DNA from: a virus
IMG/VR virus record: IMGVR_UViG_3300025141_013434
Location: 32,001 to 96,000 of that record
Length of the DNA: 64,000 nucleotides
Strand: one strand, 5' to 3'
The notes under the pieces are model-generated. The model ran no database searches, was not told where the DNA came from, and was given only the letters and a program-made list of their open reading frames with translations. The position numbers were made by a program, and so were the translations under genes. Shown piece by piece: positions 4,504-49,790 of the stretch (position 1 is the first letter of the stretch; each line of letters opens with the position of its first letter).

Positions 4504-4540
4504 AAAAAAACACCCCAGGTATAATCATACCTGGGGTGTT
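4504..4540 (-). terminator. Intrinsic terminator after recA/uvsX
   Basis: Perfect 14-bp inverted repeat AACACCCCAGGTAT-4nt-ATACCTGGGGTGTT followed by a T-run on the minus strand. Confidence 0.8.
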
Positions 4541-4552
4541 AAGGTTTGTCAA
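4524..4552 (-). promoter_or_regulatory. Sigma70-like promoter TTGACA-N17-TATGAT
   Basis: Minus strand reads TTGACA AACCTTAACACCCCAGG TATGAT. Confidence 0.65.
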
Positions 4553-5715: not shown

Positions 5716-6477
5716 TCAAGTATTCAAAAGATCGTTGAAAGCTGCTTCCACGGCATCTGTTCCCGTTGGGGGTGCCGGCTTGGTGTCTCCGTACCGCTCG
5801 ACTTGTCCGTCAGTGCTGTCTCCGTCAAGAAACGTATCCAGGAGTGCCTGGACATCCTCCGTTGCCTTGCGTTCGAAGAGCCTTTCAAAGTCTGGTACTG
5901 ACTCCAACAACTCTGCACACCTATCATCACCGCCAACTGCATCGTCGCACAAGCGAGACTTGCGTGGGCGGGGTCGGATATCCGTGCGAGGGAAGGAAGC
6001 GCCCGGGGGCTTACCATACATTACCTTGAGATCATTACCATCCTCGTGGTCAGTAACATCGCCGTAATCAGGATCGAGAACAATGGTAAGAAGCTTTTCA
6101 TAAGCCATCTTCCCGTAACCCCAAACCTTAACACCTTGCTCTTCTTCTCCCCGAACGAGTACGGGCGAAAAGAATCGCTGCTTTGCGAAGAGGCCCTTGG
6201 CCATCTTCTTACTATCCTCCGTTCCTTCGTTCCAAAGCTTGGTAGCGAAATCACAGACTGGACATTCATCTCCGAAGTTCTTCTTGGGGCATAGAAAGCC
6301 ACCATGTGTCACGTTATAGTGAAAGAACTTTTCCTTAAAAGGGTCCCCATCGGAAGTGGGAACGATTCGAATGTTGTTTTCCCCATCTTGGGGCTTCCAG
6401 AAATCAGTTCTGTTTCCGTCACCTTTTCCGGTAACGTTATTAAGTTTTGCACGCATGCGGTCTAAATCAAGAGCCAT
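5716..6477 (-). CDS. Single-stranded DNA-binding protein, T4 gp32-like
   Basis: FWKP..G.N.IRIVP, H...CP...CPVC zinc site, DYGDVTD..DGNDL, acidic C-tail ending FNDLLN. Located next to the recombinase. Start moved to the ATG with an AAGGAG RBS. Confidence 0.85.
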   Translation of the reverse strand: MALDLDRMRAKLNNVTGKGDGNRTDFWKPQDGENNIRIVPTSDGDPFKEKFFHYNVTHGGFLCPKKNFGDECPVCDFATKLWNEGTEDSKKMAKGLFAKQRFFSPVLVRGEEEQGVKVWGYGKMAYEKLLTIVLDPDYGDVTDHEDGNDLKVMYGKPPGASFPRTDIRPRPRKSRLCDDAVGGDDRCAELLESVPDFERLFERKATEDVQALLDTFLDGDSTDGQVERYGDTKPAPPTGTDAVEAAFNDLLNT

Positions 6478-6547
6478 TGGTTTCTCCTTAGTTTTTTTGC
6501 TCAATTAGCTAAAGTCAAGTCGGCAAATCTCCCGACTTGCTATAGAC

Positions 6548-6576
6548 AGTATCCCATAAAATTTATAAAATGTCAA
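6548..6576 (-). promoter_or_regulatory. Sigma70-like promoter TTGACA-N17-GATACT with extended TG
   Basis: Minus strand TTGACA TTTTATAAATTTTATGG GATACT, upstream of the SSB-recA genes. Confidence 0.65.
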
Positions 6577-7430
6577 CTATTTTTTTCAGTATCGCCCTGA
6601 ATTGCGGAAGAATAATATAATGCGTACCCACAAATATAATCATAGCTCGTGGAGAAGATTCCGTAACTTATCTTTTTGTTTTCGTCTTGATGTGCACGAG
6701 ATCTCATTTGTTCTACAATCTTTCGATGAAGGTTCGCTTCTTTTTCTAATTTTTCTTCAGGAATACCGTAATAATATCTGGTTTCCCGGACAATGTCAAG
6801 AGGAAAAAATGATTTTTCTGAATCATCTTCCGGATTGAAAAGACCTATCGTGCAAATCTTAGAAACCTCCATAAGGTCTGAAAATGTATCCGTTACAGAT
6901 TCAGAATGGTTAAAAACATTTATCATATGAAAAGAAGAAGCTATCACTTCATTTAAGGAATCGTAATAGTTCATTATTGAGGCATCTTGCACTAGGGGAT
7001 CCAACTCTTCGTTAGATATTAAATACATCTTCTCAAAAACTCCAGAACGAGAGTATTGTTGTAACACATTAAATACAGTTCGCTCCTGAAGCCTCTTTGT
7101 GTCGCTTGACAGAGAAACGTCCGGTTGAATGTAAAGGATGTTGATCCTGCACTTGCTATGAAGGTAGTGCAAGATCAAAAGTGAAGCTCCGGAGCAAATG
7201 CTTGCTCCGGAAACTATAAATAAAACTTCCCCTTTTACATTCTTCAAGAAGTTCTTGAATTTGGGGGGGTCTTTCTCATACCCTTCTGGAGAAGGGTGAG
7301 ACTCGATTTGTAGATAGTTCTTTTCATCCGATTCTTCTGTATCTATTTTAAAGACAGAATACTCAGGATATTTTTCGAACCTTCTGGCAACCCTTGTTGC
7401 AACGCCGCCAAGAGAAATTATCTTATCCAC
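6573..7430 (-). CDS. Divergent tubulin/FtsZ-like (PhuZ/TubZ-like) protein with degenerate GTPase signature
   Basis: The motif order matches the FtsZ fold: IISLGGVATRVA (T1), KIDT, VLFIVSGASICSGASLLIL (T4 position, normally GGGTG[ST]G), ILYIQP, YLISNE, then the helix ending LNEVIA. Confidence 0.6.
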   Translation of the reverse strand: MDKIISLGGVATRVARRFEKYPEYSVFKIDTEESDEKNYLQIESHPSPEGYEKDPPKFKNFLKNVKGEVLFIVSGASICSGASLLILHYLHSKCRINILYIQPDVSLSSDTKRLQERTVFNVLQQYSRSGVFEKMYLISNEELDPLVQDASIMNYYDSLNEVIASSFHMINVFNHSESVTDTFSDLMEVSKICTIGLFNPEDDSEKSFFPLDIVRETRYYYGIPEEKLEKEANLHRKIVEQMRSRAHQDENKKISYGIFSTSYDYICGYALYYSSAIQGDTEKNS

Positions 7431-8629
7431 TTTATTTCCTTCATATCGCCAAAATTCTTTCCCAACTTAACATTGACCATATACTTGCCGAACCTAGTAT
7501 TCTCGAATAGGCTTACTATTTCTGGGATTTTGTTTTTCTCTTCTTTTGTAACATCCAAAACTATGGAGTCATGCATAATGAATGCTATTTTGCTCTTCAT
7601 GTTTTTCAAAAACTTATGAACCTTTGATGCCTGCTCTAAACACACATCACTAGTTGTTGACTGTAGAATATAATTCACACTGTGATACTCATCTGATTCT
7701 ATTTCGCGGAGAAAGGGTGTGGTGACGTTCTGGCCATCCCAGTATTTCTCTTTGATGAGAACCCTGTCATAAGCGCGGTTTAACAGAAAATCCTTAGAGT
7801 CTGGATTATACAGCCAAGAAAAAACCCTCTTCTTTGCTTCCTCCCTTGTCGTGGAGGGCCCGAAAATGTTCTTGATGTTCCAGTTGTGAACGTCTTCTTC
7901 GGGCTGGGCGGTACCAACCAGAGCCAACAAAGTTCTCAATTCCGCGGCATTAAAGTCAATCTCTAAGAACGCATCGTGATTCGGCTTTATGAATTCTCTC
8001 AAGTCTTTATCCAAAGTTAGGATCGGGAAGGATCCGCGCTCAGTTGTCAAACGGCCGGTCTTGGTTCCAAACAGGTTATAACGTATTGATAACGACTTTT
8101 TATTTAAATCCTTCATAAAGTGTCGGACTTTCTTTTTAAAAAATCTTGCCTTCATGGCTGAGCGGTCAACACTAACGGCTTGAAATCTTATCTCCTCTAT
8201 CATCCTGTGAGCACCTAGGAGGTGATCATAATTTTGAGGTCTGGAATGATTTTCAAACACGCTTTTTGTTATTTCGTTTTTCAAATACAGGTAGTTCAGT
8301 AAAAACTTCTTTGGAATTATATCAAAAATACAATTTTCTGTTAGGCTTACCTTTGCAGTACTTAAGGATTTTTTGTATGCCTCCAGCTTCTTAGTCGCAG
8401 ATTCCCACGAATTTCTTAGAGAATCCGGACAAACTGAATCCAAAGATCTCCCCGCAACGTAAAGCCAAGCAAACTCTAAATGTTCGTGTTCTCGCAACGA
8501 CTCTGAATATTTCCAAGTCCTTGTGAATCCTTCTAGGTTGATTTTTTCGAAAACGAGTTCCCTACCCCAAGGGCTGTCAAAAAATGCGCCGGCGCACTCT
8601 CTCTTATCGTCGATGTTTTGAAAATACAC
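7418..8629 (-). CDS. Miniature family A DNA polymerase-like protein
   Basis: TKTGRLT, motif A DFNAAELR, DVH, motif B REEAKKRVFSWLY, NYILQSTTSD, motif C MHDSIVLD, VKLGKNF. Only 403 aa. GTG start. Confidence 0.8.
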   Translation of the reverse strand: MYFQNIDDKRECAGAFFDSPWGRELVFEKINLEGFTRTWKYSESLREHEHLEFAWLYVAGRSLDSVCPDSLRNSWESATKKLEAYKKSLSTAKVSLTENCIFDIIPKKFLLNYLYLKNEITKSVFENHSRPQNYDHLLGAHRMIEEIRFQAVSVDRSAMKARFFKKKVRHFMKDLNKKSLSIRYNLFGTKTGRLTTERGSFPILTLDKDLREFIKPNHDAFLEIDFNAAELRTLLALVGTAQPEEDVHNWNIKNIFGPSTTREEAKKRVFSWLYNPDSKDFLLNRAYDRVLIKEKYWDGQNVTTPFLREIESDEYHSVNYILQSTTSDVCLEQASKVHKFLKNMKSKIAFIMHDSIVLDVTKEEKNKIPEIVSLFENTRFGKYMVNVKLGKNFGDMKEIKWIR

Positions 8630-8647: not shown

Positions 8648-10087
8648 TTACTGGAATTGACCGATGACGATATCTTTCTGTCGTTGCATCGGTGTATAAG
8701 TCCCACCAGCGGCTGTGACTGCTTGCTGCCTGAGTTCAACATATTCTTGAGCACGACGCAACCTTTTTTCTTCTTCTGCTGCGATACTTGTGAATCCAGC
8801 TTCGGCGGCCTCTTCAGTAAAATCTGCAGTCTGACCTATCGTCAGGGAACTGTCAACAGATGCAGGTGGTATCGGACCAGTATGGCCCGCGGGAGGTGAC
8901 CCTGGTACTTTTTGAAACTTTGAAGTTCTTGGATCTGCCTTTTTAATATGATCGTTCATGAACCTTAGACCATGGGATGTGCCCAGCCTGTTAAAAACCA
9001 CCATGGTCTTGTCAAGAACCGATCGCCACTCAGGTGAGTTGGTCTTCTCCCTTCCGTAGCCACACTCAATTAATCTAGCTTTCATATAAACATCAAGGCG
9101 CTGCCTGTTTGAGAATTCTCTAATAATTTCTTCTGGCATTAGAACCTCTCTTTTCACCCTTGTCTTTATAAGTTTGCCATCGCATATTCCCCTCTTCACA
9201 ATGTAGGGATGATTCGTCATAAAAGTATAATAGCAGTCTAACATGAATTCATCTAGGATGTCAAGGTCTTTCAAGTAAGACGGATAATAAAATGCGCTAA
9301 AAATATTTTTGGCATCTCCATCTATGCAGTATTTCGACATGAAATGATGCATTGAAGGTGACGACAAGTCCGCGACGAGGGCCCACGGGGCGTTCTTGTC
9401 TACTTTAAAGCCAAACCTAGCTGCCATGGCGAGGTACTTTTTAAAATCTCTTGAGTTTAAAATATCATTTTTTTCTTTATCTTTGTCATGTTCTGCTTCT
9501 GCCAATTCTATAATCAAGCCAGAGCACCTCATAGGGCATTCGTTGGATAATATAAACCCGGTCAAAGTTAATGGAAAATCAGCCACATGATTTCTGATAA
9601 ACAGTCTGTAGAATCTCATAAAATCAGAAAAGTTCACAATCTGATCAGTATACCTATATAAATAAGATTCCAAGAAGTTGGTCTTCATTTCATCTAGATG
9701 TCTCTGATGTAACCCCCTTGGATCTACGTGGGCTTTGCGTGGAAAACTACCATCCACAACTCCAAGTAGTCCCCTCATTCTCCTTTTCGAAATGGCGTGC
9801 TCATAGTAATTCACAAAAGCAGTATAGGCATCCACGACAAAATCCATTGCAAAATGTGGCTTATTTTCATTTAAAGCTGACATACCAGTACTCAAAGGAA
9901 AAATTGCGTTGCCATGGCCATCGACTTTTCCGAAGATACTATTCAAATACCAAAAATCCTGAAATCTTCTTCTGTGTTTTGGTTCTATTTCTTCTAGAGC
10001 GCGAACTTTATACTCTCTTCTAGCATAAAACAGGTGCTTTGGGCTAGACTTATTGAGTGCCGGGGTATGAATCACTTCTTTTGCCAT
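8648..10087 (-). CDS. Hypothetical protein (tail/baseplate operon)
   Basis: Long ORF co-oriented with the baseplate genes, GAGG RBS. No recognised motif. Confidence 0.6.
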   Translation of the reverse strand: MAKEVIHTPALNKSSPKHLFYARREYKVRALEEIEPKHRRRFQDFWYLNSIFGKVDGHGNAIFPLSTGMSALNENKPHFAMDFVVDAYTAFVNYYEHAISKRRMRGLLGVVDGSFPRKAHVDPRGLHQRHLDEMKTNFLESYLYRYTDQIVNFSDFMRFYRLFIRNHVADFPLTLTGFILSNECPMRCSGLIIELAEAEHDKDKEKNDILNSRDFKKYLAMAARFGFKVDKNAPWALVADLSSPSMHHFMSKYCIDGDAKNIFSAFYYPSYLKDLDILDEFMLDCYYTFMTNHPYIVKRGICDGKLIKTRVKREVLMPEEIIREFSNRQRLDVYMKARLIECGYGREKTNSPEWRSVLDKTMVVFNRLGTSHGLRFMNDHIKKADPRTSKFQKVPGSPPAGHTGPIPPASVDSSLTIGQTADFTEEAAEAGFTSIAAEEEKRLRRAQEYVELRQQAVTAAGGTYTPMQRQKDIVIGQFQ

Positions 10088-10108: not shown

Positions 10109-12649
10109 TTATTTGCTTTCTTTTTCTGCCTTTATTGATTCATCTGCGAGAGATTGATACTCTTTCTCTTCTTCCGCCTGTCTTGCTGCGGTGGCCCTCT
10201 TTTGAGACTTAGTGGATTCATTGTTCCATATCCCCTTCACATTCATTAAAAACGAACCAGGAGAGATTGTGGCGTCAACCCCTTGTGTTACATAGTATCC
10301 ACCCAGACCCAAGCGATCAGCTATTTGTAAACTGCCGCGGCCAGGAACTGTGGGCGTTATATAAAAGATTGTCCCTGGGCGCATAAACGTGTTTCCTGCC
10401 AACTCTAGGTCCACGTTGTATGGCTGTCGCATACGATCAATGGGCGCTCCGACTTCACGAGTCATACGATGTTCAGACAAGCCAGCAACATTGTTTCTAG
10501 CAAAATTTGCCCTCTTTAATAAACCCTTATCCCTTCCCAAATGATAATGCATAATTCCCCTCTCGGAGTCCTTATATTGGTCTCCACTAGTTGGAGGGTT
10601 CGGGTCCATCATAGAAGTAAACAAAAAGTTATTATAAAGAGGTTCCGAAGTTTCGCCACCCGGGGAATGAAACAAGCCCCCCTTTTCAGAAACCAATTGA
10701 TCAATGGTGACCCTGCCCTTTTTTATATTTTTGCGGGTTGTAACCACAATTCCTCCAATTCTGTTCAGATCCCTGCCTATCATATCGGCACCAAGGAAAC
10801 ACTCAGATGTCAATCCTGGACGAATCAACTCGACCATCACTGATTGGAGAAAATCCTTAAGAGGAATTGTGTTTACTGGCCTTTCATTGTATTTTTTGTG
10901 AAACCAAGCAGAAAAGCGCCTCAAAGAAATGGGTATATCAACTAAATTTATTATTGATGATTTTTGTGTAATGGGATTGTTGTAAATCATTGTACCCAAT
11001 ATAAAATTAACCCTGGAAGATCTTAATTGAAACTTGCAAATTCCCAAAACAGCCTCTAACAAGTCTCCTAGGAAAATAAACGGTATGACAATCGTTCCTT
11101 GGCCGGGATGTGCTCGATCTATCATTTTCTCCAACTTAAACGATCGATTGTATTTTCCTGTGCTCTTGTTGGGCGGTGTCTTCTTCGGCTTCTTTGGAGG
11201 CGGTTTCTTCTCGGGGCCTGGAACCTTCTTTATAGCATCCTCTTCTGACATTCCTTCTTTTACTAACTTTTTGCGTTTCTCTCTGGCTCTTTCTAGTTCT
11301 GCTGCACGAGCTTCTTTGTCCTTCTTATTCTTTTCCGCCCCTTCTCTGTCGACAGTTGATAGTCCACCATACTTATCAAAGTACGCGTCCAGGTCTTCAG
11401 CACTGACCCTGACGTTATACACACGAGACTTGTGGGTCGGGTCGCGATCATCTGTACCTATGTTCTCGATCGCTCGTACAATACGACTCATCCTCTCGTG
11501 GCCGCGGCCAGTTAGTATTTTTGTTTTTATGAAGTCATAGGTTATTTCACTCGGATCAAGATTCTCGTTGTCAAGAGCTTCGTGAATTAACTTCTGCGCG
11601 TCGGTATCGCCTTCGGCCAAGTGAGCTGCCATTTCTCTTCTCTTGTCCGATTCAGTAGAGCGCCAGGAGGAACCGAACAGGCCTATCGTTCTTTCCTTAA
11701 AGTCTTGTGCCACTTTTGTTGTCTGGACTCTAGATTTCACCCCAGCCAAGGCTAAATCGGTTCGGCGCTCATCGGGGCCTGAAGCGCCCAACAAATCCAC
11801 CTTACTTAATGCAACGTCAAGTCTAGCCCTGTACTTCAAAGTAAGATTAAATGAACCGTCCTGTTGAAAATCAAAGTCATGCTCTGTCAAGGTAAGCAAG
11901 AAATTCATCGATTGATCCTTGATGGCTTTGATTTCGGCTGGACTCAATAAACCAGCAACCTTTGTGGGAACGTTCCAGCCAACGACAACTTTTATTTCTA
12001 TCAATCTTCCAGGCTGAGGGAGGAGAAGGAGAGACTCGTACTGTGGATCTTCAAAAACTTTTAAAGAATCTCCCCACAGGCTCATGTTCGCTTGAAACAA
12101 GTTAGTTGCAGTCCAGGGATCTGTGCCATTCATTTGCCATGTGAAGCTCTTTAAACCTAAATTTTGGCCGCGAGATGCCGGGTCCGCTAGTAGTTTTTCC
12201 AGATCGTATGAAGTCCCTTGAAGCCTTACTTCTTTTTCTGTTGTATTTGATTGTTTGGGGACATCACCTTTGTAAGTAACCACGAACACTCTTATCTTTG
12301 GTACTAAGAGTGCCATTTGAGCAGGAGAGAGAGACATTAACAGCTGCTGATCTTTGTACCAAAGAAGTTGATTTATATTTGCGTTTGGGCTCGCATCGTT
12401 TCCCGCGATAACTGTAAAATTCTTATATTTTGTACCAGTATAAGAGTTGTCACGGGCCAAATGCTCCATCTTAGAAGTCAAATAGCACTGCTCTCTAAAT
12501 TCTTCCGCTCTTCTTTGTCTTGCTTTTTTGTTGGCTTCTTCCCGGGCCTTTTGAGCTTCGGGTGAGGTGTCGACACCTTCTGTTTCTTTGTTCGTTTCTT
12601 TTGGAGCCGTCTGGCTAGATGGGACTCTCGATCCGGGTGCGCCGTACAT
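10109..12649 (-). CDS. Putative baseplate hub protein (gp27/gp44-like)
   Basis: C-terminal 'YNVDLELAGNTFMRPGTIFYI...LGLGGYYVTQGVDATISPGSF' resembles the hub-protein barrel end. Position after the tube initiator and LysM-like genes. Confidence 0.55.
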   Translation of the reverse strand: MYGAPGSRVPSSQTAPKETNKETEGVDTSPEAQKAREEANKKARQRRAEEFREQCYLTSKMEHLARDNSYTGTKYKNFTVIAGNDASPNANINQLLWYKDQQLLMSLSPAQMALLVPKIRVFVVTYKGDVPKQSNTTEKEVRLQGTSYDLEKLLADPASRGQNLGLKSFTWQMNGTDPWTATNLFQANMSLWGDSLKVFEDPQYESLLLLPQPGRLIEIKVVVGWNVPTKVAGLLSPAEIKAIKDQSMNFLLTLTEHDFDFQQDGSFNLTLKYRARLDVALSKVDLLGASGPDERRTDLALAGVKSRVQTTKVAQDFKERTIGLFGSSWRSTESDKRREMAAHLAEGDTDAQKLIHEALDNENLDPSEITYDFIKTKILTGRGHERMSRIVRAIENIGTDDRDPTHKSRVYNVRVSAEDLDAYFDKYGGLSTVDREGAEKNKKDKEARAAELERAREKRKKLVKEGMSEEDAIKKVPGPEKKPPPKKPKKTPPNKSTGKYNRSFKLEKMIDRAHPGQGTIVIPFIFLGDLLEAVLGICKFQLRSSRVNFILGTMIYNNPITQKSSIINLVDIPISLRRFSAWFHKKYNERPVNTIPLKDFLQSVMVELIRPGLTSECFLGADMIGRDLNRIGGIVVTTRKNIKKGRVTIDQLVSEKGGLFHSPGGETSEPLYNNFLFTSMMDPNPPTSGDQYKDSERGIMHYHLGRDKGLLKRANFARNNVAGLSEHRMTREVGAPIDRMRQPYNVDLELAGNTFMRPGTIFYITPTVPGRGSLQIADRLGLGGYYVTQGVDATISPGSFLMNVKGIWNNESTKSQKRATAARQAEEEKEYQSLADESIKAEKESK

Positions 12650-12651
12650 GA

Positions 12652-12987
12652 CTATACTCCATAATAAGACGTGATTTGATCCAAGGGCGAGGGAATATAA
12701 ATCAGATCTCCTTGAACGATGTGTGCCTCTGTTGGCATCTGATTAAACCAAGCAATGACCCACCACAAACTAGAGTCACCATAATATTCGTGAGCCAGTT
12801 TAAAAAATCTGTCCCCCAAAGTCCAACGATGGGGATAAAGTGTCAACTTTTCTATCTCTTCTTCAGTGGGATGTCGAAAATCCGCACTTCTGAACATGTG
12901 AATATTTTTTATGCCTCTCGCTTTAAAAAAATCCTTATACCTTTCTAGATCATTTAAGATCACATCTCTTTTTCTATATCTATCCAT
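12652..12987 (-). CDS. LysM-like baseplate wedge protein (gp53/P2 gpX-like)
   Basis: GDRFFKLAHEYYGDSSLWWVIAWFN...GDLIYIP. Confidence 0.8.
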   Translation of the reverse strand: MDRYRKRDVILNDLERYKDFFKARGIKNIHMFRSADFRHPTEEEIEKLTLYPHRWTLGDRFFKLAHEYYGDSSLWWVIAWFNQMPTEAHIVQGDLIYIPSPLDQITSYYGV

Positions 12988-22015: not shown

Positions 22016-25000
22016 TCAGCTGTTAGTACCGGAACCTGACAAATAAGTCACCGTTAGGACATCATCAGAATCCAATGCAAGGTCATCATGGAGATATACC
22101 TTATATGCATTAGCAGAACCAGTTGACAAATGATAATCTGCACCCGGGGATTGGTTGTCTGGCATATGGGTAATGTGGTCTCCGTGCAAAAGAACACCAT
22201 TCAGGTACACCATCAAACTACCAGACATGGGCTGCGCACCCAGGGAAGCAGTGAGATATGGAGTAGGAACGGCTTTCGATGCAAACATACCACTAGTAGG
22301 CACTGAGCCACTAATGTTTGAACCATCAGCTCGGACGAAAATATCCTTTCTCCAGCCAACACTAAGTCGACCAGAAGTAAAGGTTATACCACCGTTTGCA
22401 TCAGTCTTATTGATAACAATATCTTGATGAAGCTTCGCCTTAGTTACCGCCAAAGAGCCAATTTGTGGCGCGGTAACTGAGCCAGTCTGTATGTTGTCCA
22501 CAGTGACAATAGCAGTACCGTGAAGTGCATCAATGTAGCCAGCGTCGACGTGGAGTTCTGCCCACTGCAAGGCACTAGTACCCAGGTCTCTTGCACTATC
22601 AGTAGACGGGACCAAGTCAGAGTCGAAGCGACCCGTAGCAGTGATAGTGTCCGAAGTAGCATTACCGAGGTCAACATCACCAGTTGCAGACAGTGTAGTA
22701 ACAGTTGCTGCAGCAGCAGTGTTAGCACCAAGGATGCCATCAACATTAGTTGCAGTAACAGTGTCAATGTGACCAGTGTCTATATGAGCTTCAGCAAATT
22801 GCTTTGCAGAAGTACCAAGGTCAACTTTGCTATCGTTCTGAGGCACAAGGTCTGTGATGAGACCACCAACAATGGCGATGTCATCCGCTAGTGCATTACC
22901 AATCATCATACCACCGGAGGCGGTCAATGAAGTTATAGTTACCTGCCCGGCAACAACCTTGTCAGCAGTAGCAGTGTGGAAAGTACCAGACGCACCAGAA
23001 ACTGATGTCGAGCCAACAAGTTTCACACCACTAACTTTACCTGTCGAAATGTGGCCAAGTTCTGCTCTCTTAGCTTGCAAGAGAGAACCAGAAACAGAAC
23101 CAGTAACGCCAAAGCGCATGCCGGCTGTACCAACCGCTGCCATAGTGTCGGAACCAGAAACAAAGCTCGCGCCTGACTGGCCGCCAACGTTGACAAGCAA
23201 TGCGTCACCAGGAGTGGCTGCAACTCTCGTACCCAACGTCAAAGACATGAGAGGAGAAGAACCAGTTCCCTGTACACCGACCTTGCCACCAAGTTGAAAA
23301 CCTGCTCCGACATAGTCGCCTCCCTTAGAACCGGAAACACCCGCAATAATCAAGTTATCCTTGATTTCTAGCGAATCTTTAGTAACGGTTCTGGAAACAA
23401 TCGTATCAACGTCCAAAGACGTGATCTTTGCAAAAGAGGCCGTCAGTGCAGTTGCAACAATCGTGTCAATGTTGCCAGTGTCAATGTGAGCTTCAGCCCA
23501 TTGCTTGGCACTAGTACCCAGGTCTCTCGCACTATCAGTAGACGGAATCAAATCCGAATCAAACTGACCTGTGCAAGTAATGGTATCTGAAGTAGCATTA
23601 CCGAGGTCAACATCGCCAGTTGCACTCAGGGAGGTGACTGTTGCGGCTGCAGCAGTGTTCGCACCAAGAATACCATCAACATTAGTTGCTGTTACTGTAT
23701 CGATATGGCCAGTGTCGATGTGGGCTTCAGCAAATTGCTTTGTAGAAGTACCAAGGTCGACCTTGCTATCGTTCTGGGGAACAAGATCTGTGATCAAGCC
23801 ACCCAAGATTGAAAGGTCGTCAGTGACCGCAGTACCAAGCATTACACCGTTTGAGGCTGTCAAACTATTGACTGTAGCTCCACCGAAGACAGCGTCGTCA
23901 CCAGTAAGATCATGGAAGTTACCAGTTGCACCGGAAACACTGTTTGATCCAACTACGTCATAAACGCTAGCAACAGCATTTGCTGCACCACCAACATAAT
24001 AAGTTGTGCCGCCACCAAGCAAAATCTTGGAAGTAGCATTTCTTACCTGCATGTCTGCATTACGACCACCAAAGATAGCAGTCGAACCAGAGTAGATGGT
24101 AACAGTGTCAGCACTATTATTCGAATCAAAGCGAATGCTGCCGCGGCCATCGCCGTCGATGAAAGCACCAGTGGTGCCAATTGCAACGCCTGATTTACCG
24201 TGACCAATAACACCAACACCACTCTTCACACCCATGGTAAAATAATTTGTACCCGCGATCTTGAAGTTAAGTGCCTGAGCGTCAAGAGCCACAGTACCTC
24301 TGGTGTTACTAGTACCTTTTGATTTAACAGTGAGGATTGGCTTGTCAGGCGTACCTGAGTTGTAAATTACTGATGAGGTAGCACTACCAATAGCCAAACA
24401 AGCGCCGGATAAGTTCGTGCCCGAGTTGTCACCAATGACAAAAGCATATGCGTTATTGGTATTGGTGTCGAAGCCCGACTCACCTTGGCCGTGCGACGAT
24501 GTAATGTTAACGACAGTTGCATAATAATTACCACCGTTATCAACGGTCTTCAATCTAATGCCCAGTTCACCAACTTCACTCTGAATCTGTGCAGCATCAT
24601 CGCTAGCAACGTCATGCCAGAGAGTCATAAAGTGGGTTCCCTTTGCCAGGAACTGGTGACCTGTGGTTTGTGTCGTACTACCTACGTTATATTCTATTTC
24701 CCTATTGGAGCCTGAGCCAATGTTAATCCAACATGGCAGATTGCCGCCGCCGAGACCGCGGGCAATAAGGTTGATGGATGAATTGACTCCACTGCCCGGG
24801 CCATGAGATACAACTCTCAATTCGCCTTGGGCCGGTGACCAAACCTGAACGTTTGATCCCGATACATTTTCTGCTTGAAAAATAAGCTGGCGGCCGTTGC
24901 TGCCCGTCAAATTGTGTCCATCAGTTTTCCAATCAAGCAGGCCACCCAGGGAGCCATTATGATTAAACTGAATTGAGCCTGACGTACCTGCAACAGCGGA

Positions 25001-25234
25001 ACCACTGTTTATGTATGCTTTGAGGTCGCCGGCTTCGATGCCTCTAACCGTATCTGCGCTAGTGTCGTGAAGAGCTACGATATCGCCATCAGCGATAACA
25101 CCACCCCACGCAGGGCCGCCGCCCTCGGTCTTTATAAAGTTTAAGTGACCTATCTCAATCGAACCGGAAGCAATGGCATCTCTTTTAACGCCTCCGGTGG
25201 CGATAAGCCTTGAATCTATCTTTGTTCTTGCCAT
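22016..25234 (-). CDS. Fibre-like virion protein with internal repeats
   Basis: 1072 aa, G/S/T/A-rich, repeated DL(V/I)P..DS..DLGTS.KQ(F/W)AE.H(I/V)D modules, C-terminal VYLNG...DY...LTVTY beta-domain. Confidence 0.7.
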   Translation of the reverse strand: MARTKIDSRLIATGGVKRDAIASGSIEIGHLNFIKTEGGGPAWGGVIADGDIVALHDTSADTVRGIEAGDLKAYINSGSAVAGTSGSIQFNHNGSLGGLLDWKTDGHNLTGSNGRQLIFQAENVSGSNVQVWSPAQGELRVVSHGPGSGVNSSINLIARGLGGGNLPCWINIGSGSNREIEYNVGSTTQTTGHQFLAKGTHFMTLWHDVASDDAAQIQSEVGELGIRLKTVDNGGNYYATVVNITSSHGQGESGFDTNTNNAYAFVIGDNSGTNLSGACLAIGSATSSVIYNSGTPDKPILTVKSKGTSNTRGTVALDAQALNFKIAGTNYFTMGVKSGVGVIGHGKSGVAIGTTGAFIDGDGRGSIRFDSNNSADTVTIYSGSTAIFGGRNADMQVRNATSKILLGGGTTYYVGGAANAVASVYDVVGSNSVSGATGNFHDLTGDDAVFGGATVNSLTASNGVMLGTAVTDDLSILGGLITDLVPQNDSKVDLGTSTKQFAEAHIDTGHIDTVTATNVDGILGANTAAAATVTSLSATGDVDLGNATSDTITCTGQFDSDLIPSTDSARDLGTSAKQWAEAHIDTGNIDTIVATALTASFAKITSLDVDTIVSRTVTKDSLEIKDNLIIAGVSGSKGGDYVGAGFQLGGKVGVQGTGSSPLMSLTLGTRVAATPGDALLVNVGGQSGASFVSGSDTMAAVGTAGMRFGVTGSVSGSLLQAKRAELGHISTGKVSGVKLVGSTSVSGASGTFHTATADKVVAGQVTITSLTASGGMMIGNALADDIAIVGGLITDLVPQNDSKVDLGTSAKQFAEAHIDTGHIDTVTATNVDGILGANTAAAATVTTLSATGDVDLGNATSDTITATGRFDSDLVPSTDSARDLGTSALQWAELHVDAGYIDALHGTAIVTVDNIQTGSVTAPQIGSLAVTKAKLHQDIVINKTDANGGITFTSGRLSVGWRKDIFVRADGSNISGSVPTSGMFASKAVPTPYLTASLGAQPMSGSLMVYLNGVLLHGDHITHMPDNQSPGADYHLSTGSANAYKVYLHDDLALDSDDVLTVTYLSGSGTNS
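22539..23806 (-). repeat. Internal duplication of about 110 aa (approx. 23474-23806 and 22539-22868)
   Basis: GGLITDLVPQNDSKVDLGTS...NVDGILGANTAAAATVT.LSATGDVDLGNATSDTIT..G.FDSDL.PSTDSARDLGTSA.QWAE occurs twice. Confidence 0.9.
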
Positions 25235-25307
25235 TTTGTATATAATCTCCTGTTGTTGTTGGGGTCATTTTGACCCATTAAGAACAACCTTAAGAAAACA
25301 AAAACTA

Positions 25308-25535
25308 TCAGGAAAACAAAACTTTCTTTAAATTTCTAATATTATTATCAAACTTGCAAAAATCAGAATTAAGGAATTCAACTGAAAGGGAACTGCAAAC
25401 AGAATTGGAATCATCGAATTCGAAATGGAAACGGCCGGTGGAAAGACGATGACACTTCAATATTGATACCCCTTTAAGCTGCAAATAAGCGGCTATACCT
25501 ATATCTGACGTAATGTATCTTTTGTCTTCTGACAC
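25308..25535 (-). CDS. DUF5659-like small protein
   Basis: TSDIGIAAYL.LKG...F.F pattern. Confidence 0.5.
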   Translation of the reverse strand: MSEDKRYITSDIGIAAYLQLKGVSILKCHRLSTGRFHFEFDDSNSVCSSLSVEFLNSDFCKFDNNIRNLKKVLFS

Positions 25536-25575
25536 CTTCTAAAATCCCCATCTCATCTATTTGTTATACTCTTAC

Positions 25576-26100
25576 TTAACTAGGGTCATTTTTTATGAAG
25601 GCACCTTTTGTTTGATTATCGTTAGGAAAAACCAGAGTATAGCCAGACTCAGGATCTAGAGGAAAAGCGCTTTGAAGTTCTTCCATTTTTTTGTTCAAAG
25701 CGCTTTGAGCTAGCTCTATTTCATCCAAAAGCCTCTCTTTGTCCACCTCATAAGCCTGTAACAGCAAACCCAACGAAGATATTAGTTCTTTTAATCTTGT
25801 CCTTACGGAAATTATAAAATCAATATCCCCTTCTTCTATTTCAAAATATGAATCATCTATCTCGGGCTCGGGTTCGGGCTCGGGTTCTGGTTCGAGATCT
25901 AAATCTCCAGAAATCAGCTTTCCACCTCTTATTACATATTTGGGATTTGAGACCTCTTCGGAAACCTCTTCTTCAACTTCTTCTACTAGAGCCTCTTCGT
26001 CCAAAAGAACGTCCAGGGCCTTGTTGGCCTTGTCGTGCATATCTGGACTTGTCTCCTTGAGGTGTTCTAACAAATTTATTAATTTATCTAACGCTGACAT
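25576..26100 (-). CDS. Hypothetical acidic protein with PE repeat
   Basis: AAGGAG RBS, late motif upstream, EPEPEPEPEPE linker. Confidence 0.65.
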   Translation of the reverse strand: MSALDKLINLLEHLKETSPDMHDKANKALDVLLDEEALVEEVEEEVSEEVSNPKYVIRGGKLISGDLDLEPEPEPEPEPEIDDSYFEIEEGDIDFIISVRTRLKELISSLGLLLQAYEVDKERLLDEIELAQSALNKKMEELQSAFPLDPESGYTLVFPNDNQTKGAFIKNDPS

Positions 26101-26132
26101 ATTATGCTCCTTGAATAAAACAGATTCAAATA

Positions 26133-26140
26133 TAAATAGT
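26133..26140 (-). promoter_or_regulatory. Putative late promoter motif ACTATTTA
   Basis: Upstream of the 26100 start. Confidence 0.55.
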
Positions 26141-27363
26141 CAGCTGCCGGCGGTTATAACATAACTAATCAAAAGATTCTCATCACCGCCGGGGGCTTCT
26201 GTGAATGTTATGGTCGTACCGTTATCATCAACAGTATAGTCAAAGTTGACACCAAGGGTCATCAAAAGCCCACCCCTGAAAACCATTTCCGTTCCCACAA
26301 CGAAAGTATGAAGTGTAGTGAAGGACGTCCTAGTGCCATTTGGAGATTGGTTAAATTTTATTCTTGCAACATAATTATCTGTCGTCATCACATTCCCGCC
26401 CGCTTTCGCGCCAGAAGAAGTCGAAGTCGACGGGCCCGCTTTTGCGTTTCCTGCAAACTGAAATCTGGATGGCAACTCTTTTCTTGTCTCCTCTTTTACG
26501 ACTCCTGCAAGACCATAGAACCTTCCCCTTTCGTGCTCGGGGTGATCACCAAAAACAAGCCGTTCTCTGGGAATTTTTATCTCTACAGCATTCTCTCTTA
26601 TGGCGAACTTCGGTTGCTTTTGATTTTTACCATCCCCTATAAGATAAGCTAAAACTTTTATTTGTATTGTAGTTTCCAGCTTTCTTTCCTCGGACGTAAA
26701 CGAAGAAAAGTTATGATTCTGTGTGAAGCCCTCCTGTATAAACCCTTCGTATCTGTGCCCTTCGTTACTTATGAGGATGTAGTTTATAGCGCCGGGGGAT
26801 GTAATAAAAGGAGTTATCAAGTCATTCATCTGCTCTTGAAACTCTGTCCTTACAGTGATCTTATAAGTTAATTCGATATACACCGGCAGGGGTACTGATA
26901 TTGACTCATAGACAATTTTATTATTTTGCATGCCCGGAAAGTTCAATTGTCCGCGCTTTCGCATTGCTGTTCTGTTTGCAAAGTTTGATGTTTTATCTTG
27001 TTTGATTCTTCTGGATATCTGGATTGTTCCGCCTCTTTCGTCTTTGTTTGGCAGAATGTTTGCCCAAAGAGAACCCTTTTTGTTCGGATCCTTAACCATC
27101 TCCGTTCTTTCCAGGGAAACAATCGGCAATATTAGTGTACCGTCCTTGTCTCTAAACGATCTTTCCCTCTTCGAAGAGAGAGATCTTTCGGGAGAAACCC
27201 AAATTACCGGCGATTCTTTGAATCCATCCTTTGTGTCTGTATGTAATTTTAAATCTTTTAAATAATTCAACATTGCCTTATCGACATTCTCTATTGTCGA
27301 GGGCCCGAAGGGGATCGGTTTGTCTTTAAGTGCGCCTGGAGCGGTATCTATAGCAAATGCCAT
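26140..27363 (-). CDS. Tail terminator/neck-like protein (gp15-like), paralog B with an extra C-terminal beta-domain
   Basis: STIENVDKAM, PVIW...ER, LILP.VSLER, PVYIELTY. Position after the neck genes. Confidence 0.55.
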   Translation of the reverse strand: MAFAIDTAPGALKDKPIPFGPSTIENVDKAMLNYLKDLKLHTDTKDGFKESPVIWVSPERSLSSKRERSFRDKDGTLILPIVSLERTEMVKDPNKKGSLWANILPNKDERGGTIQISRRIKQDKTSNFANRTAMRKRGQLNFPGMQNNKIVYESISVPLPVYIELTYKITVRTEFQEQMNDLITPFITSPGAINYILISNEGHRYEGFIQEGFTQNHNFSSFTSEERKLETTIQIKVLAYLIGDGKNQKQPKFAIRENAVEIKIPRERLVFGDHPEHERGRFYGLAGVVKEETRKELPSRFQFAGNAKAGPSTSTSSGAKAGGNVMTTDNYVARIKFNQSPNGTRTSFTTLHTFVVGTEMVFRGGLLMTLGVNFDYTVDDNGTTITFTEAPGGDENLLISYVITAGS

Positions 27364-28232
27364 TATTCAATGTCCTCCAGGCCAGGAAGTCCATAGTAAA
27401 TGCCCCTTTCGTGTTCTGCTTTGTCGCCAAATATAATTCTCTCTCTTGGGATCTTTACTTCTACCGCATTTTCCCTCACCACTATATTGGGTTGGTCTTG
27501 GTTTTTACCTTCGCCAATCAAATAACCTAAAACTTCAATAGTAATTTTTGTTTTATATTTCCTTTCTTCTGAGGTGAAGTTCGCGATATTGTTGTCGTAA
27601 TCAAAATTCTCTTGTATGAATCCCTCATATCTATGATTATCCTTACTGTTCAGAAGTACGTAATTTATTCCACCAGGAGTTGTAACGAAGGGCGACACCA
27701 GTTCATTCATCTGTTGTTGGTATTCCGTCGATAGTATTATTTCATATGTGACTGTCACGTAAACAGGAAGAGGTATGGTTACCGTTTCGTACACTATTCT
27801 TTCATTAGCAGTTGGGAAATTTATCTGTCCCCTCTTTTTCTTAGCATGCCTGTTAGCAAAGGCCCCTGTCTTGTCCTGTTTGATTCTCCTAGCCACGGGT
27901 ATAGCTCCACCCTTTGCGTCCCTTACAGGTAGGATATTGGCCCATACAGAACCCTTCTTGGTGGGGGACTTAATCATGCCAGTTCTCTCTACTGTTACAA
28001 TCGGTAAAATGAGAGAACCATCGGGATCTCTTATTGCTTTATCCTCTTTGCTTTGAAATGCCCTTTCTGCGCCAACCCAAACCACGGGCACCTTTTTCCA
28101 TCCCTTACCAGTAGTTGTTCTGAGATCCATTTGATTGTTTAAGTAGTCCAACATAGATTCATCTATGTGTTCTATAGTTGAACTTGGGAAAGACAGCTCT
28201 TTTAGTTTTGCCAATTTCTCTCTAACTGGCAT
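27363..28232 (-). CDS. Tail terminator/neck-like protein (gp15-like), paralog A
   Basis: STIEHIDESM, VPVVW..AER, LILP.VTVER, PVYVTVTY. Clearly homologous to 26140-27363. Confidence 0.55.
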   Translation of the reverse strand: MPVREKLAKLKELSFPSSTIEHIDESMLDYLNNQMDLRTTTGKGWKKVPVVWVGAERAFQSKEDKAIRDPDGSLILPIVTVERTGMIKSPTKKGSVWANILPVRDAKGGAIPVARRIKQDKTGAFANRHAKKKRGQINFPTANERIVYETVTIPLPVYVTVTYEIILSTEYQQQMNELVSPFVTTPGGINYVLLNSKDNHRYEGFIQENFDYDNNIANFTSEERKYKTKITIEVLGYLIGEGKNQDQPNIVVRENAVEVKIPRERIIFGDKAEHERGIYYGLPGLEDIE

Positions 28233-46582: not shown

Positions 46583-46590
46583 TAAATAGT
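46583..46590 (-). promoter_or_regulatory. Putative late promoter motif ACTATTTA
   Basis: Upstream of the holin-like gene. Confidence 0.55.
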
Positions 46591-49500
46591 CAGATCTCGA
46601 CTTGTGCGTATCCATTGTTTTTCTCAATTATAATTTGTGAATCTACACAGTCCTTTAACGAATCTAGGTGTGATATAAGTATAACAGTTTTAAAATAAGA
46701 TTTAACCATATCTAAGATTCTGATAAACCCTTCCATGTTCTCCTCGTCGAGGGCAGTTCCTGGCTCATCCAAAATAAAGATATCTGGTTTTGGTAGGCTT
46801 GAAACTGATAACAAGGCCAAGCGGATAGCCATCGAGGCAATTGTCTTTTCTGCACCTGATCCCAATTCCAAAGGCCGATGATCATGTTTGGGGTGTTTTA
46901 TTGATATATCTAATTTGTTTCCGTCGTTTTCGATGAAAATGTCAAAATCAACAATGTTTGTTAGAGTTTTAGCAATTTCAGAATTGATCAATGGCAAACG
47001 CTTCTTAATAATATCGTAAGAAATACCATTTGAATGACAACAGGTCATCAGAAGATCATAGGCGGAATATTCCAAACTTAATTCAGCGATCGTCTCCTTT
47101 TGTTCCTTTAAGGTTTCAAGCTGATGCTCCAGAGATCCATGCTGCCTATAAAGAGAATGAACCTCTTCTCTGCATTTCTCGTGTTCGTGCTTCTTTTCAA
47201 ATCTTTCGTCGAGAACTTGTTCTCGGGTCGAAAGAAGCTGTTCTAAGCTCTCGATTACTTCTCTGTTGCTTTCATATTCTTCAATTTTTTCCTGCAGTTT
47301 TTCTATTTCTATTCTTGTCTTGATTATTTGTGTTTTATTTTTCTCTAAATTTACTTGATTTCTTGCAAGAGAGGTAGCCAAAACAGCTTTCTTTTCAGCG
47401 AGCTTGTCATATTTTGCAAGATAGTCATCTACCTTTGTTGGTTCGAGGTTATTTATTTTCTCGCCGAGAGAGCTAGTTCTAACACAATCGGCAGACATCT
47501 TCTTCTCTGTAATTTGAATTAGGTCATATGCTGCATGAGCATCTTTTATAAACTTACAAGACGGATATTGAGTACCGCATGGAACTTCAGATAGTAAATC
47601 CTGCTTTCTCCTGCTAGTGGTAACAATCTCACTGTTTTTTTCTGTCTCATGTATTAACTTAATAAGTTCTTCCTTGTGCTCCTCAATGAGCACTTTCTTT
47701 TCTTGATAGGAAGAGACATCGAAATTAACTAAAAAGTCGTCTATCTTTTTAAAGCTTTCTTGTTCTGATCTTATATTCTTCTTTAATGAAATTCCGTTTT
47801 CTTCTAAAACGGAGAACATATTCTCTGCAGAAGTCATGTCGTTCTTCGTAGTAATAATATCAATTATCTCTGCTGGAACAGAATCTATTTCCTCTTGTAA
47901 GGATCTCTCTTGAAAATCTAGTGATTCGATTTCTTTCCTTAGGGTTTCACACCTTTCCTTGTTTCTGTCCATCATTATTAAGCTCTTCTCTAGCTCAACC
48001 TCGACTTCTTTGATTTCTTCTATGTAATCCCGGCCTTCAAGCTTTTTAAGGGCACCGCGGGTGTCTTGTGAATCTTCTTTTGCTAATCTAAATTTTCTTT
48101 CAAAAACTTCAAGATCTAAGAACTTTGCAAGAATCTCTTTTCGTTTGGTGGAACCTTCGTTAATAAAAGATAGTGAACCGAGTTGACTAGCCATAGAAGT
48201 CATCAGAAAATCGTCGATAGTGCCAAACAATCTTCGAATATTCTTGTCAGTATCCATCCGAGACAAGCCGTTAAAGCTAATCTTGTTTTCTACAAAATCT
48301 TCACTGTAGAAATCCAAATCAGTTTTTGCCTCCAGGGTCTCTTCTCCATGGAGCCTTTTGGTGTATTTCTCTGAATTCCTCTCTATGATATAATTTTTTT
48401 CTCCAACACCGATGGTCACCTTTCCTATACCATAATCGCTTTGTTGATTAATGATATTAAGATTCTTTCTTATTGACTTGGACGTAGAGTTGTAAATTGT
48501 GTATAAAATGCTATCAATAATCGAAGACTTGCCAGAAAAGTTCTTTCCAAAAATACCAACAATCCCGTTTAAATTTTCAAAGTTTATCTTATTGCCTTCG
48601 CCATAATTAAAAAGATAATCCCACTCAATACTTTTGAGGTTCCAATTAATATTTCTGGACACCTCTTCGCTCTGTTCTATTATTGTATTGTATTTATTAT
48701 TGAGCTGTAGGACTTTTTTCATCACATCCTCTTCTACTTGAAAATCCTTCAAATATTCTTGAATGAGACTTTCCTGCACCTTTACATCTCTCAAGTCTTC
48801 TTGTACGAGACCCCTTGCTGCGTCTTCAACTGAGATGTTTCTTCCGGAGGCTCTGTTCAAATACACTAGAGATTCTGGCTTGAATCGGTGCTTTGCAATT
48901 TCTACCGCACGTCTGATCTTATCAAGAGAGATATTGGTCTTAGATGCCAGTCGTAACCTTGCTCCAAGCGGAATGTCGAGCTTTTTCGGCATACGACCTT
49001 TCGGCGTGAGGTTAATAGTAATGAACGGCTTTGGGTTTGTGAAGGTGATATGATCAACACAATACCTGTCTTTGTCCTCAATATCCCAGAGTAGATAACC
49101 CTTATCTAAAGTTTCGCCAAAATTCTGCTGAACTGTACTGCCGGCATATCGAATACGACCTTCTGGATCTAGGGCTTGGGTCTTATGAATATCGCCGAGA
49201 AACGCATAATCAAACGAATCGAAAATATCGATCTTATGATCTGCAGATTCCATCACCCACCCAATGTCAGTAGAGCAGCTTAAAATTGATCCGTGATAAA
49301 GGGCGATATTGATGCGGTCACTATCAGTTGGATCCATCCAACCATCCTCATCGAAAACGGAAAGAACATTTAAAGAAAAGTCATCACCTAGAAGAACCTC
49401 TCCCGAATTCTTGATCAAATGAAGATCCGGATGATTCATCGCATCCACGATTGGAGTCAATGCATCCTGCCTACTGCTATTTTTTAAATTGCCATCATGG

Positions 49501-49736
49501 TTGCCCAAAATAATATATGTCGGTGCAATGTTTGCTAGATTCCTAAAGAAGTCAGTACATAACTCCACAAACTCTGGAGATATTTGCGTTTTTGTATGCG
49601 CAATGTCACCGCAGTGAACGATATAATCTATTTCTTCTTCTAGTAAGGAATTATATAATTGTTTGAATACTTCCCGGTATTCGTGGTGATATTTTAAGTT
49701 GCGGATATGCGTATCCGCAATATGCGCAAATCGCAT
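46590..49736 (-). CDS. Fused Mre11/SbcD nuclease - Rad50/SbcC ATPase (gp47-gp46 fusion)
   Basis: N-terminal HIADTH, GD, GNHD, HG, LGDIH, YAGS. C-terminal GKNFSGKSS, Q-loop SQ, coiled coil, GSGAE signature, ILDEP, ISH. Confidence 0.92.
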   Translation of the reverse strand: MRFAHIADTHIRNLKYHHEYREVFKQLYNSLLEEEIDYIVHCGDIAHTKTQISPEFVELCTDFFRNLANIAPTYIILGNHDGNLKNSSRQDALTPIVDAMNHPDLHLIKNSGEVLLGDDFSLNVLSVFDEDGWMDPTDSDRINIALYHGSILSCSTDIGWVMESADHKIDIFDSFDYAFLGDIHKTQALDPEGRIRYAGSTVQQNFGETLDKGYLLWDIEDKDRYCVDHITFTNPKPFITINLTPKGRMPKKLDIPLGARLRLASKTNISLDKIRRAVEIAKHRFKPESLVYLNRASGRNISVEDAARGLVQEDLRDVKVQESLIQEYLKDFQVEEDVMKKVLQLNNKYNTIIEQSEEVSRNINWNLKSIEWDYLFNYGEGNKINFENLNGIVGIFGKNFSGKSSIIDSILYTIYNSTSKSIRKNLNIINQQSDYGIGKVTIGVGEKNYIIERNSEKYTKRLHGEETLEAKTDLDFYSEDFVENKISFNGLSRMDTDKNIRRLFGTIDDFLMTSMASQLGSLSFINEGSTKRKEILAKFLDLEVFERKFRLAKEDSQDTRGALKKLEGRDYIEEIKEVEVELEKSLIMMDRNKERCETLRKEIESLDFQERSLQEEIDSVPAEIIDIITTKNDMTSAENMFSVLEENGISLKKNIRSEQESFKKIDDFLVNFDVSSYQEKKVLIEEHKEELIKLIHETEKNSEIVTTSRRKQDLLSEVPCGTQYPSCKFIKDAHAAYDLIQITEKKMSADCVRTSSLGEKINNLEPTKVDDYLAKYDKLAEKKAVLATSLARNQVNLEKNKTQIIKTRIEIEKLQEKIEEYESNREVIESLEQLLSTREQVLDERFEKKHEHEKCREEVHSLYRQHGSLEHQLETLKEQKETIAELSLEYSAYDLLMTCCHSNGISYDIIKKRLPLINSEIAKTLTNIVDFDIFIENDGNKLDISIKHPKHDHRPLELGSGAEKTIASMAIRLALLSVSSLPKPDIFILDEPGTALDEENMEGFIRILDMVKSYFKTVILISHLDSLKDCVDSQIIIEKNNGYAQVEI

Positions 49737-49758: not shown

Positions 49759-49790
49759 TTTATTTATTATAGGATAGTTTTGTTCTTAAG

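Follow-up and report, generated by a model that had tools for sequence, protein, structure and literature searches.

The stretch of viral DNA analysed here (hereafter the window) comprises 64,000 nucleotides (nt), positions 32001-96000 of the 145,243-bp IMG/VR record IMGVR_UViG_3300025141_013434, for which CheckV gives a completeness of 68%. Two genes on its minus strand, encoding a family-A DNA polymerase of 403 amino acids (aa) and a 285-aa protein with a predicted FtsZ/tubulin fold, overlap by 13 nt, as stated in a preliminary description that presented them as a candidate for an undescribed two-gene module at the end of a tail operon. We find instead that the polymerase matches, in sequence profile and structural model, a type published in 2024, that the 285-aa protein represents a large and unnamed family, and that the two genes head a conserved replication block. 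The features on which the argument turns are the following.

7418-8629, minus strand: predicted divPolA1-type family-A DNA polymerase, 403 aa, GTG start, Pfam PF00476 at E 8.9e-14
6573-7430, minus strand: predicted minimal FtsZ/tubulin-fold protein of an unnamed marine-phage family, 285 aa, GTG start, model pLDDT 93.5
7418-7442, minus strand: gene junction, with the 13-nt overlap at 7418-7430 and a Shine-Dalgarno-like GAAGGA at 7442-7437

Both GTG starts are consistent with the N-termini of the respective homologues, MxFQxLDDK for the polymerase and MDxIIGLG for the 285-aa protein.

Fold, family and nucleotide pocket of the 285-aa protein

The tubulin/FtsZ fold and the degenerate motifs that the preliminary description had attributed to the 285-aa open reading frame (ORF) were borne out. 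The AlphaFold model, built on a 48-sequence alignment, reached a predicted local distance difference test (pLDDT) of 93.5 and a predicted template-modelling score (pTM) of 0.91, and Foldseek matched it in the PDB to FtsZ, TubZ and tubulin at E ~2e-11 (template-modelling score, TM, 0.63-0.72; probability 1.00). The VIA structure search, which is independent of Foldseek, returned CetZ at Z 24.0, TubZ at 22.4, tubulin at 20.9, FtsZ at 20.7 and PhuZ at ~16; superfamily matches at Z 20-24, BtubA included, covered 261-279 residues, and the nearest unrelated fold, that of short-chain dehydrogenases, scored Z 9. Across the ESM Atlas and BFVD, the nearest named relatives were viral TubZ-, FtsZ- and PhuZ-like proteins; the protein's own ESM Atlas clusters were unnamed and viral, and BFVD held no close member of the family. 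Searches of Pfam and PHROG gave no match to the protein, while the Pfam Tubulin model (PF00091) was reached by 2 of 48 family members at E 0.028 and by nothing in the genome at E <= 1, and the family profile found only chance Rossmann matches among PDB sequences (E >= 0.48). Judged by the predicted structure, the fold is secure. The chain stops ~10 residues past the last strand, and the model depicts a complete but minimal FtsZ/tubulin core without a C-terminal tail.

Homologues of this protein are numerous. A word-index search yielded 83 clusters, every one of them unnamed and of marine-metagenome origin. With an exhaustive profile search the number rose to 875 (clustered at 50% identity), of which 350 reached E <= 1e-30; among the matches listed, nearly all were ~270-300 aa long. 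At least 595 loci of the family are present in IMG/VR. A tblastn search of 50,697 phage records gave no match, and no cellular homologues of one consensus-like family member were found using exact peptide seeds only. The family goes unmentioned in the paper describing divPolA1 and its supplement (PMC11348598), in a marine jumbo-phage survey and in the further literature searched. One automatic ESM Atlas cluster name reads 'Tubulin/FtsZ GTPase domain-containing', so automated pipelines have already glimpsed it. We conclude that the family is large, unnamed and confined to marine relatives of the window phage, and rate it as a new, strongly divergent variant inside a known superfamily.

Conservation of the motifs was computed over 218 family members, and pocket positions were assigned by a collinear hhalign alignment to E. 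coli FtsZ that is not statistically significant (E 0.03-0.24), so that the mapping rests on the structural match. The T1 loop has the consensus GLGxAGCN (G8 99%, G11 82%), T2 carries an Asp at D30 (81%), and T4 follows the pattern G75-[ASG]-[GS]-x-x-S80-G81 (G75 96%, S80 76%, G81 61%). The T5 Pro is P103 (87%), the T6 Asn is N140 (85%), and H7 contributes Y155 (82%) and N160 (89%). Residues of T1, T6 and H7 align to G-G-G-N, N165, F182 and N186 of FtsZ, and the family consensus contains both the G-x-G-x-x-G of the T1 loop and the expected base and ribose contacts (T6 Asn, H7 aromatic plus Asn/Asp). By this alignment, most nucleotide-pocket positions other than the superfamily signature and T7 rank among the best conserved of the family. 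The T7 position was placed by predicted secondary structure, and the catalytic acid of NxDxxD/E, by which one subunit activates hydrolysis in its neighbour, is not conserved there: between H7 and S7 (residues 175-190) no residue exceeds 55% and no Asp or Glu is conserved, D181 standing at 29%. The family is acidic, with a median isoelectric point of 5.7, as are FtsZ and tubulins. In the window protein, the T4 region reads SGASICSGAS, and an 11-bp inverted repeat within the gene (7187-7212, minus strand), flagged as terminator-like by a scan, encodes this near-palindromic SGAS-IC-SGAS of the degenerate loop.

The family-A polymerase and its genome

The PolA-like identity proposed earlier for the 403-aa ORF holds, as it is matched by Pfam DNA_pol_A and its model (pLDDT 92.7) superposes on family-A polymerases at Z 20-22, including Pol nu at Z 22.0 and the Klenow fragment at Z 21.1 (384 residues aligned to Klenow 352-928). 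The protein has more than 2200 homologue clusters. Throughout 41 homologues, D225, E230 and R232 of motif A, R262, K266, F270 and Y274 of motif B, and H353 and D354 of motif C are invariant; with all three motifs intact, the protein is predicted to be catalytically intact as a polymerase. Residues ~1-150 alone match DEDD exonucleases at Z 7-8, and the first strand, the only one compared and read by eye from the sequence, has FQxLD versus DTE in Klenow. The model suggests that the polymerase keeps a shrunken, vestigial exonuclease-fold domain and is not simply 'exonuclease-less'.

A profile of the 41 homologues matches, over positions 99-387 of 398, gene 1 of Flavobacterium phage vB_FspM_immuto (MW353176.1 412-1314; hereafter immuto) at E 7.5e-15, a gene annotated 'DNA polymerase family A' in a phage that a single-sequence tblastn with the 403-aa protein, unlike the profile, fails to find. 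This gene is the type of divPolA1, described by Yutin et al. (2024, Virol J 21:200, PMC11348598; bioRxiv 10.1101/2024.04.26.591309) as having a conserved palm, a truncated thumb and replaced exonuclease aspartates. The same work reports that, in genomes with divPolA1, replication genes follow it in a conserved row and another, 'regular' polymerase is encoded at a different site, beside the GroEL/GroES genes (PMC11348598). The window polymerase resembles the immuto group in being a family-A protein within ~400-440 aa whose palm is conserved along with motifs A, B and C, and in lying upstream of genes for single-stranded DNA-binding protein (SSB), recombinase, 5'-3' exonuclease, DnaB and ribonucleotide reductase (RNR); its genome likewise has a regular polymerase near GroEL/GroES. 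It differs in forming a marine clade distantly similar in sequence to immuto, and the regular polymerase of its genome is DnaE. Profile and model together identify the 403-aa protein as a divPolA1-type polymerase, and the polymerase half of the supposedly undescribed module had thus been published in 2024.

A check for a separate replicative polymerase, proposed in the preliminary description, turned up a full-length DnaE-type polymerase of 1149 aa with PHP, NTPase, finger and HhH domains at genome positions 24021-27470 (locus L084:11021-14470), ~4.5-8 kb before window base 1. Genes for GroES, GroEL, ClpP and a GMP-reductase/IMPDH-family protein share a 19-kb stretch (L084) with it, and between DnaE and GroES comes a gene for a 691-aa MopE-repeat protein. 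No PolB or PolA-exonuclease Pfam domains were found across the 145-kb record. divPolA1 is auxiliary, an extra polymerase beside the DnaE replicase of the same genome.

The minus strand of the record carries 120 of its 127 ORFs, and the myovirus gene set comprises sheath, tube, baseplate hub, portal, large terminase and a gp23-like capsid protein. Judged by the capsid protein, the closest phages in culture (42-48% identity) are Flavobacterium phage immuto, Microcystis phage Mel-JY01 and Rhodothermus phage RM378, and the phage is a T4-distant myovirus. Elsewhere in the window (46590-49736, minus strand), a single 1048-aa ORF fuses an SbcD-like N-terminal part to an SbcC-like C-terminal part; an 11/12 sigma70-like promoter precedes it, with a -10 hexamer whose end at 49766 leaves 30 nt to the start of the ORF.

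Gene order and transcription around the pair

The neighbouring features are listed below.

12652-12987: gp25-like baseplate wedge
8648-10087, minus strand: upstream neighbour (p479), 479 aa, ending 18 nt before the polymerase start
6548-6576, minus strand: sigma70-like promoter TTGACA-17-GATACT (with TG), 10/12, which overlaps the tubulin-like gene at its stop codon
6517-6538, minus strand: hairpin AAGTCGG-N8-CCGACTT in the SSB leader, read from the sequence and followed by an A-rich stretch and AAGGAG
5716-6504, minus strand: downstream neighbour, gp32-like SSB, Pfam gp32 at E 7.5e-14 and phrog_1192 at E 2.7e-25

The preliminary description placed the pair directly behind tape-measure and baseplate genes. 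The 18-nt gap stands, while the tail identity holds in part: only the gp25-like wedge was identified, and the ORF at 10109-12649 has no Pfam or PHROG match. For p479, no match was obtained in Pfam, PHROG, PDB-profile or ESM Atlas searches, and no relation was detected to immuto gene 238 or to a 219-aa gene of Mel-JY01; its homologues evolve fast (20-36% identity, 362-566 aa), and its C-terminal region is of low complexity.

Synteny was counted over 82 relatives, made up of 80 IMG/VR loci and 2 divergent contigs (30-34% identity). The order p276, gp25-like, p846, p479, divPolA1, tubulin-like, gp32, UvsX, flap endonuclease (FEN), DnaB and RNR is invariant in 82/82. In all 60 loci that extend far enough upstream, the polymerase precedes the tubulin-like gene on the same strand, so that the linkage asked about earlier holds among marine relatives. 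It fails in immuto, Mel-JY01 and the 484-kb phage LR756508, where the divPolA1 profile finds a match and the tubulin-family profile does not (the window's own genome served as positive control), and where the Pfam Tubulin model has no match either. The slot after divPolA1 holds a 151-aa and a 171-aa gene in immuto and three genes in Mel-JY01, one of them S-adenosylmethionine lyase-like. Immuto genes 2 and 3 and a 428-aa gene of Mel-JY01 were tried as homologues of the tubulin-like gene, and hhalign returned them as unrelated.

The junction between the two genes is tight in most relatives and open in others. GAAGGA sits in the conserved C-terminal MKE codons of the polymerase, 6 nt ahead of the GTG start of the tubulin-like gene, and the genes overlap in 50/72 relatives (-13 in 18, -4 in 17, -1 in 9); genome-wide, 44 of 113 same-strand junctions overlap. 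Extra genes split the junction in 17/73 relatives (23%), and interruption is rarer at the flanking junctions (p479/polymerase 0/57, tubulin-like/gp32 6/79). The commonest insert, found in 10 marine relatives, is a gene for a MazG-like pyrophosphatase. This insert is a ~105-aa ORF with the MazG/PRA-PH-like motif KLVRDRIPEII ... EE.AD..EV (loci L005, L024, L027, L043, L045, L062, L071, L073, L076 and L081); other relatives have unrelated inserts of up to 1.9 kb. A search for longer forms, itself weak evidence, found no fused polymerase-tubulin proteins. The equal synteny of the whole block, the interruptions of the junction, the variable slot and the lack of fusions argue against a special two-gene unit; the pair heads a conserved replication block. 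The two-gene module of the preliminary description is not supported, as cultured relatives have divPolA1 without the tubulin-like gene, which is a lineage-specific occupant of a variable slot between divPolA1 and gp32. Further down the block, the UvsX/FEN junction is the one most often interrupted in relatives (41/55), and in the window a strong terminator with a 14-bp stem and a T-run lies between these two genes (4509-4552, minus strand), overlapping an 11/12 sigma70-like TTGACA-17-TATGAT.

Sigma70-like sites were scored by match to consensus and counted in relatives at 10/12 or better. The site at 6576-6548, already noted in the preliminary description between the 285-aa gene and SSB, probably drives the gp32-like SSB gene, as a sigma70-like site lies no more than 150 nt upstream of gp32 in 56/78 relatives. 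The hairpin that follows it is reminiscent of the T4 gene 32 translational operator. An 11/12 site, TTGACA-17-TATTAT, also lies in the 3' part of the tubulin-like gene (6798-6771, minus strand), ~270 nt upstream of SSB. The claim that the pair has no promoter of its own is correct for consensus scans of the window, which detect no sigma70-like site within ~200 nt upstream of the polymerase, the nearest being TTGACA-17-CAGACT at 8857-8829 and TTGACA-18-TAGACT at 9264-9235. It does not extend to the relatives: in 33/55 the 3' end of the p479 homologue contains TTGACA-17-TAnnnT, no more than 200 nt from where the polymerase starts. Upstream of each of two structural-gene controls, sites were found in 0/24 loci, and ahead of UvsX and the tubulin-like gene in 6-9%. 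Neither gene of the pair has the T4 late-promoter motif TATAAATA upstream of it on the minus strand. These motif counts suggest that, in much of the lineage, a transcription unit read by host sigma70 begins with the polymerase gene. Its tight join to upstream baseplate genes, also present in immuto and Mel-JY01, is a conserved module boundary and not good evidence of late co-expression. With such sites in relatives and a replication block downstream, the earlier placement of the pair at the end of a tail operon, with late co-transcription, is doubtful.

Proposed role and comparison with known tubulin-type systems

Given the conservation of the pocket and the position of the gene, we tentatively favour a reading that we regard as plausible without calling it probable. 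The tubulin-like protein would still bind guanine nucleotide through the conserved T1, T2, T4, T5, T6 and H7 positions and would self-associate head-to-tail, like TubZ, RepX, PhuZ or FtsZ. With a shortened signature loop and no conserved T7 catalytic acid, it would turn nucleotide over slowly or not at all, and self-association would proceed without assembly-coupled hydrolysis. The outcome would be a static scaffold, made alongside the replication proteins, that organises or positions replicating phage DNA and forms no dynamic spindle. divPolA1 and the separate FEN may act as a split Pol I beside DnaE, in gap filling or in the processing of Okazaki fragments or recombination intermediates, and the tubulin-like protein is probably not an obligate polymerase subunit.

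Several observations weigh against this reading. The superfamily signature GGGTG[ST]G is missing, the T4 loop is 2 residues shorter than that of FtsZ in the alignment, and the T3 GxG loop is lost, so that nucleotide binding by the family is putative. The window protein is more degenerate still, its T1 reading SLGGVATR, with S6, A11 and R13 in place of the family's G, G and N. The scaffold model leaves the family invariants E49-x-Y51-E52, Q124-x-Y126-x-R128-S129 and Q278 unexplained. The acidity of the protein argues against direct DNA binding and, with no C-terminal tail and no TubR-like adaptor identified (no search was aimed at the latter), nothing indicates how it would couple to DNA. Finally, the start/stop overlap and the embedded Shine-Dalgarno sequence (~70% of relatives) fit co-translation and keep a direct partnership with the polymerase open.

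That partnership is the first alternative we consider, and we think it unlikely. The tubulin-fold protein would bind divPolA1 as an accessory subunit of its own and, by aiding processivity or loading, offset the truncated thumb, much as thioredoxin serves T7 polymerase and POLG2 serves Pol gamma. Its gene lies immediately or almost immediately downstream of divPolA1 in 60/60 relatives, with the overlapping junction (50/72) and a Shine-Dalgarno sequence in the polymerase's conserved C-terminal codons, and the invariant surface-type motifs of the family go beyond nucleotide binding; the thumb of divPolA1 is indeed reported as truncated (PMC11348598). However, immuto, Mel-JY01 and LR756508 manage with divPolA1 and no tubulin-like gene, its slot being filled by unrelated ones, and the junction is split more often than those adjoining it (17/73). 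Overlapping junctions are moreover common genome-wide (44/113), and the absence of fusions points the same way, as weak evidence. A complex prediction for the two proteins, each with its alignment, scored 0.00 with controls not run, and is no evidence either way.

Next in standing, and improbable in our judgement, is a non-polymerising nucleotide binder that has turned the tubulin fold to another task, for instance controlling replication or the nucleotide pool as a switch or regulator that depends on GTP. Such a role would suit a protein that keeps its nucleotide-pocket residues and has lost the T7 and T3 elements coupling assembly to hydrolysis, and nucleotide-metabolism genes are found around it (RNR, the MazG-like insertions) and elsewhere in the genome (the GMP reductase/IMPDH-family gene). 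Against this, the C-terminal domain, which is the assembly-contact domain of the superfamily, is fully retained and conserved, and we know of no tubulin-fold protein with such a role.

Ranking below the switch, with rather little chance of being right, is a host-takeover mimic that caps or poisons filaments of host FtsZ or another tubulin-like polymer of the host and halts cell division in the course of infection. With its T7 region disabled and its tail absent, the FtsZ-like core has the appearance to be expected of a capping subunit, and the slot in relatives holds genes of accessory or counter-defence type, such as the S-adenosylmethionine lyase-like gene of Mel-JY01. Yet identity to any FtsZ is only 10-15%, making co-assembly unlikely, the structural matches spread evenly across CetZ, TubZ, tubulin and FtsZ without favouring bacterial FtsZ, and position and sequence are stable across a deep lineage with probably varied hosts. 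Lower again we place recruitment of the tubulin-fold protein as a replisome component, co-translated with and binding divPolA1 or the gp32/UvsX machinery; if true, a cytoskeletal fold that has lost assembly-coupled GTP hydrolysis would have given rise to a novel type of polymerase accessory or of scaffold for a replication factory, and a direct link to the replisome, if shown, would raise the interest of the family. The late two-gene unit of the preliminary description, transcribed along with tail genes to process DNA ends, to scaffold a packaging factory or to act after delivery by the virion, is highly improbable: the 18-nt gap, the lack of a consensus promoter within 200 nt in the window and the never-interrupted p479/polymerase junction (0/57) agree with it, but the sites in the 3' end of the upstream gene (33/55 relatives versus 0/24 at the two structural-gene controls), the replication and recombination functions of all downstream genes and the lack of any link of either protein to virions speak against it, and neither the DNA-end-processing nor the virion-delivered role found support.

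Whichever role applies, the family widens the range of phage tubulins, of which PhuZ is known from nucleus-forming jumbo phages and TubZ from plasmid-like prophages. It is a third phage family, one that has diverged much further, escapes Pfam, is minimal in size and abounds in ocean viromes, in a lineage of T4-distant myoviruses of which no cultured member carries the gene; phage cytoskeletal genes would then not be restricted to nucleus-forming phages. A protein that keeps the nucleotide pocket and has lost the hydrolysis-activating loop may also offer a natural test of the tubulin fold without dynamic instability. For annotation, two recurrent 'hypothetical' genes of marine viromes receive names, and the tail-operon assignment is corrected.

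Among known systems, PhuZ is comparable as a phage-encoded tubulin fold of ~300 aa, with Z 15.7-16.3 to the 285-aa protein and BFVD matches at E 1e-5. The structural match is weaker than to CetZ, TubZ or FtsZ, the acidic C-terminal tail of PhuZ is absent from the 285-aa protein and its T7 catalytic aspartate is unconserved there. PhuZ also belongs to nucleus-forming jumbo phages, whereas the 285-aa gene resides in a T4-distant myovirus with DnaE and sigma70-like promoters.

TubZ and RepX are the type III tubulins of plasmids and prophages, serving partition and replication. Their genes, like that of the 285-aa protein, belong to mobile elements and are tied to DNA replication or maintenance (PMC2875224). 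The two-domain fold is shared, with 274-279 residues aligned at Z 21-22.4, and a viral TubZ-like family is the nearest named ESM Atlas cluster (TM 0.84). The 285-aa protein differs from TubZ in being ~100 aa shorter, without the C-terminal tail by which TubZ binds TubR, with a degenerate signature and an unconserved T7 acid, and neither the Pfam Tubulin nor the TubZ_C model matches it. No TubR or centromere partner turned up beside the gene, whose neighbours are the polymerase and SSB, in an analysis with no search aimed at TubR-like genes or centromere repeats.

From FtsZ and CetZ, the 285-aa protein is separated by a sequence identity of 10-15%, by the loss of GGGTG[ST]G, of the T3 GxG loop and of the C-terminal linker and peptide, and by a prediction that includes no H8 helix after T7. 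In overall structure it nonetheless matches these two best, with CetZ at Z 24.0 and FtsZ at Z 20.7 (Foldseek E 2e-11), and the order of T1, T2, T4, T6 and H7 in the family is collinear with that of E. coli FtsZ.

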